NCBI GenBank assembly: GCA_965228875.1
Contig: OZ245843.1
Location: 2,772,616-2,836,615 of the forward strand
Length of the DNA stretch: 64,000 bases
Direction: 5' to 3'
DNA from: Thalassobaculaceae bacterium
Lineage (GTDB): Bacteria > Pseudomonadota > Alphaproteobacteria > Thalassobaculales > Thalassobaculaceae
The notes beneath the pieces were generated by a model. That model ran no database searches. It was not told where the DNA came from and saw nothing but the letters and a program-made list of their open reading frames with translations. Position 1 is the first letter of the stretch; every line of letters begins with the position of its first letter. Below are positions 17,488-23,320 of this stretch, piece after piece. The position numbers were made by a program, and so were the translations under genes.

Positions 17488-18120
17488 ATGACCCGCTATG
17501 ACCAAGCCCTCGCCGTGACCGAGGCCGGAACCGTCGCGTCCACCAGCAGTCGCCCGTCCCGCGAACAGGCGGAACGCGCGGTGCGGACGCTGATCGAGTT
17601 CGTCGGCGAAGATCCGGACCGCGAGGGACTGCAGGACACCCCCAAACGGGTGGTCAAGTCGTACGAGGAACTGTTCTCCGGCTACCTGTATGACCCGGCC
17701 GACATCCTGGCCCGCACCTTCGAGGAGGTGGAGGAGTACGACGAGATCGTGCTTCTGCGCGACGTCCGGTTCGAGTCCTTCTGCGAACACCACATGCTGC
17801 CGATCATCGGCACCGCCCATGTCGCCTACTTCCCGAACGACCGGGTGGTCGGCATCTCCAAGCTGGCCCGGGTGATCGACGCCTACGCCAAGCGGATGCA
17901 GATCCAGGAACGCCTCACGGCCCAGATCGCCCAGGCGATCGAGAGCGTCCTGCAACCGCGTGGCGTCGCGGTGTTCATCGAGTCCGAGCACCACTGCATG
18001 AGCACGCGCGGCGTCCACAAGCCCGGGGTGAGCATGATCACCACCCGAATGCTCGGCTGCTTCAAGGACGATGCCGATCGCCGGCGCGAGTTCTATCAGA
18101 TGATCGGCAGGTCCGCGTAG
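17488..18120 (+). CDS. folE: GTP cyclohydrolase I
   Basis: [37 protein letters not shown]. Confidence 0.95.
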
Positions 18121-18227
18121 CGACGACGCGGCAGGCCGTGGGCGGCGGGCGACCGCGTCCCGCCCTTGCGCCCACCTTCGGCGCCCCCATTTATACAAGA
18201 TAACTCTTGTTAAAAAGGGGCGTCGCC

Positions 18228-18686
18228 ATGGTCGTGCCGATCACCAGTCTTTACGAAGCACACCTGACGGTCCGGGACCTGGATCGCTCGATCGCGTTCT
18301 ACCGCGACGTACTCGGCCTGCCGCTGGCCCATGTGCTGCCGGCGCGAAACGTCGCCTTCTTCTGGGTCCCCAGGGCGGAGACGGCGATGCTTGGCCTGTG
18401 GGGCGTCGGAAGCGCGCCGATGGGCATGAACCTGCACATCGCCTTTTCGGTCGGGCTCGAGGATCTGGAGCGATCGGTCCAGGCGCTGCGGGACGCGGGT
18501 CTGAGGCCGCATTTCAACGGCACGCCGATCGACGAGCCGGTCGTCCTCGCCTGGATGCCCGCCGCAAGCGTGTATTTCCAGGACCCGGACGGGCATTCGC
18601 TGGAGTTCATCACCCTGCTGACGGACCAGCCCCGTCCGGGCACGCGGACCATGCCGCTGTCGGAGTGGCGGGCACAGGAAGGCTGA
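18228..18686 (+). CDS. VOC/glyoxalase family protein
   Basis: EAHLTVRDLDRSIAFY, HIAF, YFQDPDGHSLE. Confidence 0.9.
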   Translation: MVVPITSLYEAHLTVRDLDRSIAFYRDVLGLPLAHVLPARNVAFFWVPRAETAMLGLWGVGSAPMGMNLHIAFSVGLEDLERSVQALRDAGLRPHFNGTPIDEPVVLAWMPAASVYFQDPDGHSLEFITLLTDQPRPGTRTMPLSEWRAQEG

Positions 18687-18729
18687 CGTTCCCCCGCCAC
18701 CCGTCGGTAGTGTCTCAGTTTGAAATTGG

Positions 18730-19074
18730 CTATTCGTCAGTGCTCGTCATCTTTCCGGTCACGCGATCCACGGTGCGCGACAGAAGCTTCGCAATCTCCT
18801 CCATACCCATGCGCTGGGCGAGCGGGATCAATATGAGAAGCTCAAGCAAGACGAGGGCAATCGGCCCAGTAAACGTCGGCATTACCGAGAAGAACACGAC
18901 GTCCAGTAACAACACGATCATAACTAGGAAAACGAATCGCTCCTCCTTCCGAGCGTCGCTTTCATACGTAAGCTTCTTTTGAAGCTCTTCAATTTGCTGA
19001 TCTTTTTTCGTCGGTTGCTCAACAAGCAACTCGTCGAACCCATCATCCAGCTTGTCGTTGAGCCCGGAAGGCAT
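18730..19074 (-). CDS. Candidate membrane toxin (PanT-like): coiled-coil plus two TM segments
   Basis: Overlaps the 3' end of the upstream Panacea gene; charged helical N-terminus, then FVFLVMIVLLLDVVFFSV and IALVLLELLILIPLA. Toxin role is inferred. Confidence 0.6.
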   Translation of the reverse strand: MPSGLNDKLDDGFDELLVEQPTKKDQQIEELQKKLTYESDARKEERFVFLVMIVLLLDVVFFSVMPTFTGPIALVLLELLILIPLAQRMGMEEIAKLLSRTVDRVTGKMTSTDE

Positions 19075-19510
19075 CCTCTCTATCCCTAAATTCGTCGAGA
19101 ATGTCCTGGTTCGGGATGATGATCCCTCGTGCTCCCGGACGGTAGTTCTGCTCCCAGGCTCCGTTCGGACGATGTGTGATGGCTACGAGGCGGCCGGGCG
19201 ATAAGTGGGACAATTTCGCCACGGCATCGTCCAACAATTCAACAGCAGACTCATCGTCAATGTCCGGCTCACCATGGAACACGTTTCCAACCGGATCTGA
19301 CCCAAACACCTTAACCCGATGGTAGAGCTTCGGGTGAACAGGCCCATAGTCCCAAGCCTCAAAATGACCGCTTACAAGCGGCTGGCCGTTTGTGCGGCCA
19401 AGATGGAACATATGAGCCAGATAAAGCAGTTTTTGGAGTTCCAGGTTTGAAAGAGACCACCCGGAACACTCCGCTAGCCGCTTCGCAGCTGAGAGTACGG
19501 GAACGGTCAT
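19043..19510 (-). CDS. Panacea-domain (DUF4065/SocA-like) antitoxin
   Basis: LQKLLYLAH, FEAWDYGPV, LVAITH...W; GGGGAG RBS before ATG 19510. Confidence 0.88.
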   Translation of the reverse strand: MTVPVLSAAKRLAECSGWSLSNLELQKLLYLAHMFHLGRTNGQPLVSGHFEAWDYGPVHPKLYHRVKVFGSDPVGNVFHGEPDIDDESAVELLDDAVAKLSHLSPGRLVAITHRPNGAWEQNYRPGARGIIIPNQDILDEFRDREDAFRAQRQAG

Positions 19511-19575
19511 GCCGATCTCCCCGATCAATGTTCTTATTTACGTTCACTCAAGACGTGGCTTGAGTTTACCACAGT

Positions 19576-20460
19576 TCAAGCGTTGGCAGCGCGTTTCTTG
19601 TACGGCCCACGCGGTCCCGGCTTCGGTGCCCGTACATCGATCAGCGAAACGATCCACTCCACATCGCGCAGCGTGTCGGTCACGCCGGCGGCCATAGCCG
19701 GGGACATCTTCAGCGTCTTGTGGATGCGGCAGAAATTGTGGTGCAGGAAGTACAACGCGATCATGTGAAAGTGGTTGTCGAGCTTCTTGCTGAACCCGTT
19801 GGTCAACCGCGTGAACCGGCGCATGCCCATCCGCATAGAGAGGTTCTGACGCTCGACATATGATGTGCTGACGTGCGCCTTGTCGGCGTTGCCCGTCTTC
19901 TTCTCTTTGCGGGCGCCGATGCACTCAGCCGGGCTGTAGCGGCCCTTGGCGCTTTCCGGGGTCGTCCCGTACAGCTTCACCAGCTGGGCATAGTCCACAT
20001 CAGCACCAAACGCGCCTTCAATCGCGTCCAGATAAGCCCCGCGACCGTCCGTCGTCAGCTGCACCCGGTTCGCCAGCCGTTCGGCCACGTCGTCCATGAA
20101 CTCTTTCGCATAGTTGCTGTCGCGACCGCCGACCAGGTACGACACGATCAGCTTGCTATCGGCATCCAGCGCGGTCCACGTCCACACGTCACCAGCTTCC
20201 TCGGGAGCCGCCTTCGCGGTGCCTACGTTCTTCTGCTTGGCGTAGCAGAATGACCAGATTTCATCGCACTGCACCCGCTTCGCCTTCACGTCTCGGACTG
20301 TCTCATCGTGATAGGCGGCAGCGGCTTCACCAGCCTCCACCAGCAACTTGGTCACGGTGTTGATCGAGACCCCTACCACCCGCGAGATCGACCGCATGGA
20401 GGAACCTTCCACCAGCATGGCGATGATCTGTACGCGCTTGTGAAGGGGCAGCTTGTTCAT
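19576..20460 (-). CDS. IS1-family transposase (single ORF, HTH plus DDE)
   Basis: HTH EGSSMRSISRVVGVSINTV; VQCDEIWS, LTTDG and SYVERQN catalytic motifs; RRFTRLTNGFSKK; no frameshift seen. Confidence 0.92.
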   Translation of the reverse strand: MNKLPLHKRVQIIAMLVEGSSMRSISRVVGVSINTVTKLLVEAGEAAAAYHDETVRDVKAKRVQCDEIWSFCYAKQKNVGTAKAAPEEAGDVWTWTALDADSKLIVSYLVGGRDSNYAKEFMDDVAERLANRVQLTTDGRGAYLDAIEGAFGADVDYAQLVKLYGTTPESAKGRYSPAECIGARKEKKTGNADKAHVSTSYVERQNLSMRMGMRRFTRLTNGFSKKLDNHFHMIALYFLHHNFCRIHKTLKMSPAMAAGVTDTLRDVEWIVSLIDVRAPKPGPRGPYKKRAANA

Positions 20461-20503
20461 ACCCCTTAGATGGGGTGCCGCTGACCATTATCAAGCATTA
20501 TGT

Positions 20504-20899
20504 TCACTTACGAAACAGGCCAGTTGTGACAGCGAGTACCAGCCCGATAGCGCTGACGGCCGTGCTGCCAACCAGGTATTCTAGAACAGAGCTATCCAGG
20601 CTAAATCCACAAATATTTACAGCAGAGGCAACTAACACTAACCCAACGAAAACAGAATATGCGACCAAGTAGCAAAATACCCATCGCGCATATTTCCAGC
20701 GCAATTTGCGATTTATTTTTAGATCGCGGTTTGTTTCAATAATCGTTTGTGTTTCAGCGAGCTGCCGCCGACTTGCGGCGGCAGTCTCTTTCTTGTCCAT
20801 TTCGTCAGGGGCGGCTTTGAATTCGGCAGCTTCTAGACTCCTGCGCATCGCGCGCAGTGCAGCCTCTCGAACGAATGCGGTTTGGTTGCCGGGGCTCAC
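20504..20899 (-). CDS. Candidate membrane toxin (PanT-like): coiled-coil plus two C-terminal TM segments
   Basis: GTGA overlap with the Panacea stop; RKLRWKYARWVFCYLVAYSVFVGLVLVA and YLVGSTAVSAIGLVLAVTTGLF. Toxin role is inferred. Confidence 0.6.
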   Translation of the reverse strand: MSPGNQTAFVREAALRAMRRSLEAAEFKAAPDEMDKKETAAASRRQLAETQTIIETNRDLKINRKLRWKYARWVFCYLVAYSVFVGLVLVASAVNICGFSLDSSVLEYLVGSTAVSAIGLVLAVTTGLFRK

Positions 20900-21393
20900 A
20901 CTGCTTCTAGTAAGCTGTCGAAATGCTGTTTAATGGTCTTATCATCAATCGGACGATTTCTACCGTGCTCAAATGCCAGAGACCAAGGCGTTCCATCTTG
21001 ATGAGTCAATGCTGACAGCTTAAATGCTGGGTATTTCCCGTATGTATTCCAAACAAGGTCTAGAACCTCAGCCTCTTCCGGCGCTAACTCTTCAAAAGCT
21101 TCGCCGTCACTATCAAAGGAAAATGGTGTATCGTCGCCCCATTTTAGAGGGTGACTAATTGGGGAACGACCAAACTTACGAAGAGCACTATACAAATTTG
21201 GGATGACTGGCCCAAACTCCCATGCCTGAACTTGATCTTCCACTAGCCGTTTATTCAGAACAGCCAGCCCCCAGCCGTGGGCCAGGTAGACCAGCTTCTG
21301 CACCTGCATTTGGGTAATAGGATGCCCTCCCGGAGCTAGCGAGCGCCGGATAAATTCATTCGCAATCGCCAAAGATGAATAGGGAGCGGGCAT
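20896..21393 (-). CDS. Panacea-domain (DUF4065/SocA-like) antitoxin
   Basis: IANEFI, VQKLVYLAH, QAWEFGPVIPNLY, LSALTHQDGTPW; TGATG overlap with the upstream small gene. Confidence 0.9.
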   Translation of the reverse strand: MPAPYSSLAIANEFIRRSLAPGGHPITQMQVQKLVYLAHGWGLAVLNKRLVEDQVQAWEFGPVIPNLYSALRKFGRSPISHPLKWGDDTPFSFDSDGEAFEELAPEEAEVLDLVWNTYGKYPAFKLSALTHQDGTPWSLAFEHGRNRPIDDKTIKQHFDSLLEAV

Positions 21394-21611
21394 CAACCCC
21401 ACCTCGCCGCAGCCGCCTTTTTCGCAATCTCTTTCCGCTCTGCCGGCGACAGAGAATCGGCACGCGCCTTCGCACCAGCCAAACCGCTCTTGCGCTTCGC
21501 AGGCTGTTCGTAACGCGTGTCTTCGATCTCTCCGGTGGCGATCTTGGCGACCATGACCGCAGTGCCGATCACGTCCGCCGGGCGGGTCTCGCCCCTAGGT
21601 CCCTTCGGCAT
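21393..21611 (-). CDS. Small basic IS-associated protein (72 aa)
   Basis: MPKGPRGETRPADVIG...VAKIATGE...GAKARADSLSPAERKEIAKKAAAARW; GGGAG RBS. Resembles small ORFs that accompany IS1/IS1595-type transposases. Confidence 0.75.
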   Translation of the reverse strand: MPKGPRGETRPADVIGTAVMVAKIATGEIEDTRYEQPAKRKSGLAGAKARADSLSPAERKEIAKKAAAARWG

Positions 21612-21868
21612 GGCTTTCTCCCGATCCGGCTTCATTGAGCCGTTCTTCCCGTTAGATGCACCATAGCATGTGCAGGAACTCTGTGGAACGTCCCGGCCCC
21701 TAGTGGTGCGTCTAGGGAATATATGGGGCGATGTGGGAAATTTGCGACCGCGGGGTCAGCCCCGCGAAATTTCAAACTGAGACACTACCCACCCGTCGGC
21801 CCGGTGGACAGCCCGGCGCCGATGACCGATCATCGCGCCGGGTCGACCATCCTGGCGGCGGGACACGC

Positions 21869-23320
21869 GTGATCGATTTCGGACCGGTCTTCTTCATCGT
21901 CGGGCTTCTGTTGACGCTGCTCGCCACGGCCATGTGCATTCCGGCCGCGGTCGATCTCGCGACCGGACACCCCGATTGGCAGGTGTTCCTCGGCGCCGCC
22001 GGAATCACTCTGTTCATCGGCGTCTCGCTGATGCTGTCGACGCCGACGGTGCGCGGGGCCAAGCTCGGGCTGCGCCAGGCGTTCGTTCTGACCACCATGA
22101 GCTGGGTGGCGATCGCCGCGTTCGGCGCCCTGCCCTTCGCCTTCTCCGAACTCGACATGACCCTGGCCGACGCCTTCTTCGAGTCGATGTCGGGCGTGAC
22201 GACGACGGGCTCGACGGTGATCGACAACCTCGACGCCGCTCCTCCGGGCATCCTGCTCTGGCGCGCCCTGCTGCAATGGCTCGGCGGCATCGGCATCATC
22301 GTCATGGCACTTGCCGTTCTGCCGATGCTCAGCGTCGGCGGCATGCAGCTCTTCCAGACCGAGGCGTTCGACGCCCCCGACAAGGTGCTGCCGCGCGCGG
22401 CCCAGCTCGCCGGCGGTATCGGCGGCATCTACCTGGTGCTGACCTTCGCCTGGGCGGTGGCGTTGTGGTTTGCCGGCATGGAGGGGTTCGATGCCGTCGC
22501 CCACGCGATGACGACGATCGCCACCGGCGGCTATTCGACCAAGGACGCCTCGGTCGGCTACTTCAACACGCCGGCAATCGACTGGATCGTCACCGGCGGC
22601 ATGATCGTCGGTAGCCTGCCGTTCGTTCACTACCTGCGCATCGCGCGCGGCGACCTGCGCGGTCTGTTCCGCGACAGCCAGGTGCGGTGGTTCCTGAGCA
22701 TCGTGCTGGCCGCCGTCGCCCTGGTGACGCTGTGGATCCTCAGCCAGGTCGGCCTCGGCACCGAGGACGCGCTGCGGTACGCCGCCTTCAACGTGATCTC
22801 GGTCATCACCGGTACCGGCTACGCCACGACCGATTTCGGCGCATGGGGCGGCTTCGTCGCCACCATGATGTTCGTCCTGATGTTCGTCGGCGGCTGTGCC
22901 GGATCGACCACCTGCGGGATCAAGATCTTCCGTTTCCAGGTGCTTTACGCCACCGCCCAGGTCCAGCTCGCCCGGCTGCTGCGCCCGCACGGGGTGTTCA
23001 TTCCCTACTACAACCGCAAGCCTATTCCCGAGACCGTGTCGGAAGCGGTGATGGGCTTCTTCTTCCTCTACATTCTCTGCTTCGGGCTGGTCGCCATGGC
23101 GCTAGCGGCGATGGGCCTCGATTTCATCACCGCGTTCTCCGGTGCGGCCACGGCGATCAGCAATGTGGGCCCCGGCCTCGGTCCGATCATCGGTCCGGCC
23201 GGGAATTTCGACCCGCTGCCCGAGGCGGCGAAGTGGCTCCTGTGCTTCGCCATGCTCCTCGGCCGCCTGGAACTGTTCACCGTCCTGGTGCTGATAACGC
23301 CGACCTTCTGGCGGAAGTGA
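21869..23320 (+). CDS. trkH: Trk system potassium uptake protein
   Basis: FESMSGVTTTG, QWLGGIG, IATGGYS, GGCAGST, SNVGPG, GRLE; likely GTG start at 21869. Confidence 0.93.
   Translation: MIDFGPVFFIVGLLLTLLATAMCIPAAVDLATGHPDWQVFLGAAGITLFIGVSLMLSTPTVRGAKLGLRQAFVLTTMSWVAIAAFGALPFAFSELDMTLADAFFESMSGVTTTGSTVIDNLDAAPPGILLWRALLQWLGGIGIIVMALAVLPMLSVGGMQLFQTEAFDAPDKVLPRAAQLAGGIGGIYLVLTFAWAVALWFAGMEGFDAVAHAMTTIATGGYSTKDASVGYFNTPAIDWIVTGGMIVGSLPFVHYLRIARGDLRGLFRDSQVRWFLSIVLAAVALVTLWILSQVGLGTEDALRYAAFNVISVITGTGYATTDFGAWGGFVATMMFVLMFVGGCAGSTTCGIKIFRFQVLYATAQVQLARLLRPHGVFIPYYNRKPIPETVSEAVMGFFFLYILCFGLVAMALAAMGLDFITAFSGAATAISNVGPGLGPIIGPAGNFDPLPEAAKWLLCFAMLLGRLELFTVLVLITPTFWRK

Follow-up and report, generated by a model that had tools for sequence, protein, structure and literature searches.

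An IS1-type insertion sequence of a Thalassobaculaceae bacterium carries two putative PanAT pairs and belongs to a lineage with variable cargo slots

In P2-like phages and P4-like satellites, defence hotspots consist of conserved flanking genes between which anti-phage cargo is rapidly swapped. Insertion sequences (IS) with passenger genes have been described under the concept of the transporter IS (tIS; PMC9330008), and toxin-antitoxin (TA) pairs in Tn3-family transposons sit at res sites with the resolvase (Lima-Mendez et al. 2020, as cited in PMC8832971 and PMC9330008). In PanAT systems, a single-domain Panacea antitoxin gene is followed by that of a small protein with a charged N-terminus and C-terminal membrane helices (PMC8832971, PMC10440598), and the Escherichia coli toxin, PanT, depolarises and permeabilises membranes (PMC8832971). 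Kurata et al. noted PanATs near transposases, with one IS1-family transposase listed as accessory in their Dataset S1 (PMC8832971). The present analysis concerns an element at positions 18706-21789 (3,084 bp) of the window, a stretch of 64,000 nucleotides from a Thalassobaculaceae bacterium (assembly GCA_965228875.1, contig OZ245843.1, positions 2,772,616 to 2,836,615). We consider it probable that it is an intact IS1-type passenger IS, with slots that take up new contents from a common pool enriched in TA and defence genes, and that its two pairs of Panacea antitoxin (PanA) and putative membrane toxin were drawn independently.

With an IS1-family tIS, the element shares an IS1-type DDE transposase, GGnnnTG ends and an 8-bp duplication, and its relatives are named 'IS1 family transposase' in RefSeq. 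Not found described for tIS are the fixed small gene (orfX) of its lineage, its slots at three defined places and the abundance of TA and defence genes among its cargo. Gene order and protein architecture are those of PanAT systems, although two pairs lie inside one bounded IS and are known here from sequence alone. As in TA-carrying Tn3-family transposons, TA passengers occupy a fixed position, but the element has no resolvase and its lineage carries defence genes beyond TA. In contrast to the P2 and P4 hotspots, the platform is an insertion sequence of 2-5 kb rather than a phage or satellite. The type VI TA system SocAB of Caulobacter, in which SocB is a clamp-binding toxin, also differs, since the partners are membrane proteins here and the PanA proteins score 91 and 110 bits against the SocA equivalog NF047745, below its cut-off of 190. 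A preliminary description of the locus, drawn up from its sequence, had allowed for the element being already catalogued with this cargo. The literature yielded no account of the orfX lineage or its slots, nor of two PanAT pairs in one IS, in a search in which subscription papers were largely out of reach and ISfinder and TnCentral were not covered. Passenger-carrying IS1 elements and membrane PanATs are known kinds, whereas the slot architecture with orfX was not found described.

The boundaries of the element are well defined. The first 22 bases are identical at both ends, start with GGTAGTG and form perfect terminal inverted repeats (TIRs), which rank first among 50 inverted repeats in the 4.5-kb region scanned. 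An 8-bp target-site duplication (TSD), CACCCGTC, flanks them on either side (Table 1). Six open reading frames (ORFs) lie on the minus strand in the order orfX, panA1, TM1, transposase, panA2 and TM2, and the stop codon of TM2, at 18730, is 2 bp off the TIR. Repeats, duplication, gene order and the position of this last gene agree with the preliminary description. The insertion lies between a glyoxalase gene and trkH, and of 10 genomes from the same genus, 8 lack the element and have the two flanks side by side (junction sequences were viewed for three), with a spacer too diverged to reveal a single copy of the 8-mer. The TIRs, the TSD and these empty sites show that the element inserted as one unit; a recent-looking insertion, as suspected earlier, is supported. 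The genome contains one full copy, and GC content is 0.49-0.55 in the cargo versus 0.68 for the genome. Two other explanations of the locus were considered: a composite or nested transposon is ruled out by the single transposase and only two TIR matches at the locus, and misassembly is unsupported, as contigs from public sequencing runs bridge both junctions. These runs may include the source data of the assembly, and the contigs are therefore not independent support.

The wider lineage was recovered by scanning GTDB contigs with the transposase, which returned at least 476 stretches encoding relatives, the best 80 of which were analysed. Paired TIRs near-identical to those of the element occur in 71 of these 80, spaced to give lengths of 2.1-4.8 kb, and an exact TSD of 8-9 bp accompanies 60 of the 71. 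Two pairs of repeat copies reduce the 71 to 69 distinct elements. A degenerate TIR pattern was present in 62 of 401 genomes of the element's class (reversed control, 0) and in at least 146 stretches of viral contigs. When elements with unlike cargo are compared (29 chosen pairwise alignments), the only DNA stretches that remain similar are both element ends, orfX and the promoter-transposase block. This restriction to backbone blocks defines three variable slots, and by sequence comparison the layout is TIR, slot 0, orfX, slot 1, transposase, slot 2, TIR. Slot 0 is empty in the element under study, and slot 2 exceeds 200 bp in 32 of the 71 relatives. Breaks in homology recur close to the stop codon of orfX, at 0-65 bp ahead of the transposase gene and close to its stop codon. 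The earlier notion of a vehicle for TA or anti-phage cassettes is supported, whereas the slots number three rather than two. The small basic ORF had been placed among the carried genes; since orfX occurs in 70 of 71 relatives, it belongs to the backbone and not to the cargo.

Several reduced forms were also observed. The stretch L156:298-1722 is a 1.4-kb non-autonomous derivative composed of TIR, orfX, a divergent panA, its partner and TIR; it lacks a transposase and is flanked by an exact duplication of 8 bp. In L171, a 0.8-kb TIR pair with TSD, no backbone gene was detected. On a viral contig (L328:1616-3797), homologs of panA2-TM2 accompany a left TIR, orfX and a long ORF in reverse orientation, with no transposase between them.

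Cargo turns over faster than the transposase while the backbone is kept, as judged from sequence comparison. The nearest relative (L001) shares 91.5% identity across the transposase only, and its cargo comprises RosmerTA and an unrelated slot-2 gene. No main slot-1 family is shared within the 25 closest transposase pairs (87-96% amino acid identity); one close pair shares merely an overlapping minor ORF and a slot-2 MazF. At about 67% in both cases, the match to L082 covers the entire left arm of the element and that to L052 its right arm. Moreover, RosmerTA and P63C recur across the transposase tree (a quick tree without bootstrap), and two elements of the lineage are sometimes found in one genome. 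Modules of the TM1-PanA1 type occupy slot 1 of L082, L084-88 and L105/106, and the PanA2-TM2 type occupies slot 2 of L052. As other members of the family carry each module in the corresponding slot, fresh capture of the modules is improbable, and the distribution fits reassortment from a shared pool. What is supported of the separate captures proposed in the preliminary description is the separate origin.

The cargo pool was surveyed through 312 mechanically called candidate ORFs in 227 clusters, each represented by one sequence, 130 of which were compared with Pfam and 70 with PADLOC. P63C proteins account for 16 ORFs and RmrA of RosmerTA for 10, with RmrT matches in three partner clusters. 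Further clusters encode Panacea (6), a PD-Lambda-2_B-like helix-turn-helix (HTH) protein (4), methylase-endonuclease fusions (3) and MazF (3 elements), accompanied by NYN/HEC-09, Fic, the TIR protein PDC-S35, PD-T4-5-like, HEC-04, PDC-M66B and PDC-S13. Many cargo families have no match at all, and four elements contain a nested IS. PADLOC matches at E<=1e-10 were obtained for 13 of 70 cargo representatives versus 7 of 118 flanking ORFs, which favours a pool enriched in TA and defence genes. The panA partners of the lineage fall into at least five types, including T3-like, T12-like and TM2-like membrane proteins (T3 and T12 being the E. coli and Bartonella PanT clusters), and two soluble types, one resembling RelE and the other MazF/PemK as judged by eye and from weak matches only. 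Individual cases illustrate this range. The slot-2 partner of L051 (L051:3849-4247) shares 34% identity with one member of T12, a validated cluster; in L002 (1255-1619), a TM2-like partner with an internal stop follows an intact panA, reflecting toxin decay or a sequencing error; L157 and L159 combine, in slot 1 of complete elements, a divergent panA type with a partner that appears MazF/PemK-like by eye; and slot 0 of L072 (1569-2156) holds a dCTP deaminase-like gene.

Both pairs display the organisation of PanATs. The two PanA ORFs score 77.3 and 64.9 bits against PF13274 (SocA_Panacea; cut-off 25.7), so the domain assignment and divergence claimed earlier hold, the two proteins being 28% identical over 130 amino acids. 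Translation of PanA1 most likely begins at the ATG at 21393, which overlaps the orfX stop, and that of PanA2 most likely at the ATG at 19510, with a Shine-Dalgarno-like GGAG upstream. Within the pairs, panA1 and TM1 overlap by GTGA, and panA2 and TM2 by 32 nucleotides. TM1 and TM2 each have a long helix and, after a charged N-terminal part, two hydrophobic segments at the C-terminus, in line with the membrane-toxin-like character assigned at first. They give no BLAST alignment with each other, and their profiles (66 and 96 homologs) match with a probability of 0.9%, in agreement with the earlier view of unrelated partners. Duplication of one module was considered and is ruled out by the low PanA identity and the unrelated partners; PanA2 is, in fact, far closer to the panA products of L052 and L002 than to PanA1.

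TM1 belongs to a family of 2,203 representatives at E<=0.001. Among metagenome loci with at least 300 bp of upstream sequence (7 of 62 were dropped as too short), 52 of 55 have panA immediately ahead of the TM1 homolog; de-duplication leaves 42 of 45. These loci lie mostly outside this IS family. For TM2, all three genome loci and both viral loci with a homolog have panA directly in front of it. The TM1 profile aligned with PanT of Escherichia phage PhiR47_1 (HHalign 95.9%, E 6e-9, 87 columns), but only within the membrane half, a region whose hydrophobic helices may raise such scores artificially. An E. coli locus 100% identical to the PhiR47_1 PanT locus encodes antitoxin WP_000287252.1 and toxin WP_000019187.1; the validated E. 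coli pair consists of the same antitoxin and toxin allele WP_000019185.1 (PMC8832971, Table 1). TM1 is thus a remote homolog of an allele of the validated, membrane-disrupting E. coli PanT (cluster T3). T3 and T12 were the only PanT clusters compared, and the T12 member YP_003344835.1 (first 103 residues) reached probabilities of 0.1% with TM1 and 0.4% with TM2. In the ESM Atlas, TM1 falls in unnamed clusters only. Foldseek searches of the TM1 and TM2 models against viral structures gave no match at E<=0.001, and neither protein matched plasmid sequences. Co-folding of PanA1 and TM1 gave a weak signal (score 0.33 versus 0.01 for the best control, contact agreement between runs at least 68%, partner pLDDT at least 62). 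Of 157 solved complexes, just 18 scored 0.60 or lower, and both of the mismatches that passed lay in this range as well.

The transposase supports the IS1-family assignment of the preliminary description. It scores 28.2 bits against PF03400 (cut-off 24.1), and D66, D138 and E203 are kept in 99-100% of 69 aligned relatives. NF033558 is its best NCBIfam match (E 4e-18), yet at 66 bits it remains below the cut-off of 100. HTH matches span residues 4-41, and the N-terminus lacks a cysteine pair. The ISfinder table gives GGnnnTG ends for the IS1 family (PMC10425158), and the DDE transposase, the ends with their TIRs and the 8-bp duplication (8-9 bp in the family) all agree. In contrast, classical IS1 elements measure 740-1180 bp and use an insA/insB frameshift, whereas this element has 3,084 bp, one transposase ORF and a transposase score below the NCBIfam IS1 cut-off. 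The ISMhu11 group of IS1 is characterised by a single ORF, an N-terminal HTH without zinc finger and passengers up- and downstream of the transposase. The single ORF, the HTH and the passengers of the element agree with this description, and it presumably belongs there.

Table 1. Features of the element in window coordinates
Feature	Position	Strand	Remarks and basis
Target-site duplication, copy 1	18698..18705		8 bp; sequence
TIR downstream of transposase	18706..18727		Perfect, 22 bp; inverted-repeat search
TM2, putative PanT membrane toxin, slot 2	18730..19074	-	Architecture, gene pairing
PanA2, single-domain Panacea antitoxin, slot 2	19043..19510	-	ORF finder start 19528; profile match
Single-ORF IS1-type DDE transposase, N-terminal HTH	19576..20460	-	294 amino acids; Pfam/NCBIfam profiles, alignment of relatives
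Conserved block before transposase, probable promoter	20461..20512	-	Comparison of relatives
TM1, putative PanT membrane toxin, slot 1	20504..20899	-	Remote homology to E. coli prophage PanT
PanA1, single-domain Panacea antitoxin, slot 1	20896..21393	-	ORF finder start 21402; profile match
orfX, small basic backbone gene	21393..21635	-	Likely start 21614; conserved across lineage
TIR upstream of orfX	21768..21789		Perfect, 22 bp; inverted-repeat search
Target-site duplication, copy 2	21790..21797		Sequence

Judging from spacing, the block before the transposase is a probable promoter of its own with a short or absent leader. A TGCTTGA motif with at most one mismatch occurs in this block in 64 of 71 relatives. 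In L001-L080, a putative -10 sits 5-7 bp before the transposase ATG, which suggests a leaderless transcript. A consensus sigma-70 scan called no minus-strand promoter, this block included. A palindrome of the form CTT-N6-AAG(C/G)A precedes the transposase in 33 of 71 relatives, and a similar one precedes orfX in some. About half of the elements L001-L080 have, in the 60 bp ahead of the transposase, a palindrome of the TGCTT-N6-AAGCA type that overlaps the -35 box, and in several it is seen again ahead of orfX.

The proposed mechanism combines these observations with analogy to characterised PanATs. Slots would most likely be refilled when elements sharing a cell recombine within or close to their conserved blocks. 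The panA1-TM1 pair may be translationally coupled to orfX, and transcription of panA2-TM2 could start at the transposase promoter or at a short promoter belonging to the pair. By analogy with the validated E. coli and Bartonella PanATs, each pair is most likely a type II TA system. In the Bartonella pair, Panacea contacts the N-terminal region of the toxin and the helix before its membrane segment, as backed by mutagenesis (PMC10440598). Each single-domain PanA would likewise bind the charged N-terminal region of its own toxin or the helix before the membrane segments, and a trigger would free the toxin, leading to depolarisation of the inner membrane and cell arrest. As the slots also hold RosmerTA, whose anti-phage activity has been validated (PMC10440598), and single-gene defence candidates, abortive anti-phage defence that pays for the upkeep of the element would be the likeliest selective role, although our confidence in it is evenly divided. 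Stabilisation of the element ranks next.

Several points weigh against this interpretation. PADLOC, whose use the preliminary description had suggested, gave no meaningful match for the genes of the element, and TM2 has no match in Pfam, NCBIfam, PADLOC or PHROG. The TM2 profile matched neither T3 nor T12, and the putative toxin role of TM2 is drawn from architecture and gene pairing only. For TM1, the restriction of the PanT alignment to the membrane half counts here too, as do three loci with upstream sequence but no panA. The accessible parts of PMC8832971 and PMC10440598 do not report anti-phage activity of a PanAT pair. The comparison of PADLOC matches between cargo and flanks uses a crude control, in that the flanking ORFs are longer, mechanically picked and in some cases perhaps not genes. 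Finally, crossovers inside the transposase, hinted at by a Mantel comparison of amino acid sequences (orfX against the N-terminal third 0.43, against the C-terminal third 0.08), were not upheld by the nucleotide decay test, which was not significant (slope reached by 41 of 200 shuffles).

A more far-reaching possibility, which we put forward tentatively, is that the lineage constitutes an undescribed, class-wide miniature defence-hotspot transposon, its three slots being replenished with anti-phage modules, in which most unannotated passengers, the TM2 pair included, are new phage-defence systems. Under such a reading, orfX would help in the control or exchange of cargo, and defence systems could be read by position.

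The main competitor to phage defence holds that the TA pairs are addiction or stabilisation modules that guard the element or its host plasmids and prophages against loss and confer no protection from phages. TA pairs are integral passengers of Tn3-family transposons (PMC9330008), Kurata et al. propose addiction for transposon-linked PanATs (PMC8832971), and L156 retains orfX, panA and partner between TIRs with a TSD even though its transposase is gone. We nonetheless regard this explanation as unlikely, given that the same slots hold single-gene cargo unable to addict by a TA route (the TIR protein PDC-S35, HEC-04, HEC-09/NYN, PD-T4-5-like), that frequent swapping fits a changing external pressure, and that L002 keeps panA intact beside a TM partner with an internal stop.

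Refilling by recombination between elements competes with a dedicated exchange in which orfX, the transposase or both would act at the palindrome near the slot borders in a cassette-like manner. Consistent with this are the recurring positions of the homology breaks, the palindrome before the transposase in 33 of 71 relatives and the near-universal presence of orfX in spite of independent DNA drift: between L001 and the element, orfX is 60% and the transposase 96% identical at the amino acid level, the DNA of orfX drifting independently of the transposase. However, purifying selection on coding blocks also gives breaks at gene borders, the palindrome overlaps the -35 box and is naturally read as an operator, the element under study holds only a half-site, and cargo occurs in either orientation with no cassette-like repeat seen. 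Dedicated exchange is, on balance, improbable. The orfX product has no Pfam family, and automatic ESM Atlas names read 'RNA-binding protein'. A segment resembling its basic C-terminal half is present in P63C cargo proteins (phmmer E 4e-5 to 5e-3) in slot 1 of L008, L009, L023, L031, L033, L052, L054, L067, L071, L072 and L079.

Slightly less credible still is the view that the TM proteins are membrane sensors or exclusion proteins under PanA control rather than toxins. The TM proteins lack a Pfam family, TM2 lacks a link to a validated toxin, and Panacea has been proposed as a sensor in some systems (PMC10440598). Against these points stand the homology of TM1 to a validated membrane-disrupting PanT and the resemblance of the L051 slot-2 partner to the validated cluster T12.

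The double Panacea load reported in the preliminary description was also evaluated. A panA gene occurs in 6 of 71 genome elements (three in slot 1 and three in slot 2), in 4 of 28 viral TIR pairs and in 4 of 16 class regions, these last four having been picked for their panA. None of these 115 other elements and regions contains a second double case, a count in which divergent panA genes might be missed, although a second profile added none. At 3/69 for each of the two slots, doubles should arise by chance in about 0.2% of elements, so a few are expected among thousands of elements without selection. The combination is rare but no rarer than chance; it is thus not special in itself and probably represents a chance draw rather than a special design. 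That the double load was selected as one two-input system, through cross-talk between the PanAs or toxins sensing different phage triggers, is therefore very unlikely, even though all genes are intact and co-oriented, Panacea can evolve to neutralise non-cognate toxins (PMC8832971) and a truncated relative in the genome bears a third panA, whose partner is not a membrane protein, because each module is also found singly, both in other elements and away from this IS family, and the absence of a second case agrees with the chance rate. The truncated relative (L081:3981-5200; G000:C1:2565980-2567200) has one TIR, lacks its left part and contains a 3' fragment of the transposase (89% nucleotide identity), this third panA and a soluble partner (PHROG 8366; RelE-like by eye); all three panA genes of the genome lie within this IS lineage.

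Some observations concern the surroundings of the element. The trkH ORF call (window 21731-23320) runs into the TIR, and the real start is probably a GTG near 21869. The insertion, some 70 bp away from this start, could influence expression of trkH. One public run showed 18 differences in the left host flank (window 17949-18654) and none in the covered parts of the element or in the right flank. No RNA runs holding the element were listed among the public sequencing runs queried.

Kurata et al. left the driver of PanAT partner swapping open and speculated on transposons (PMC8832971). The element offers a clean, bounded example of Panacea modules moving and meeting. The slots may serve as a positional filter for new defence genes, as many of the cargo families found there have no Pfam match. 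Moreover, a single 3-kb fragment offers a natural two-by-two specificity test of two Panacea pairs. The transferable value would thus lie in the slot architecture and the testable pairs rather than in the double load.

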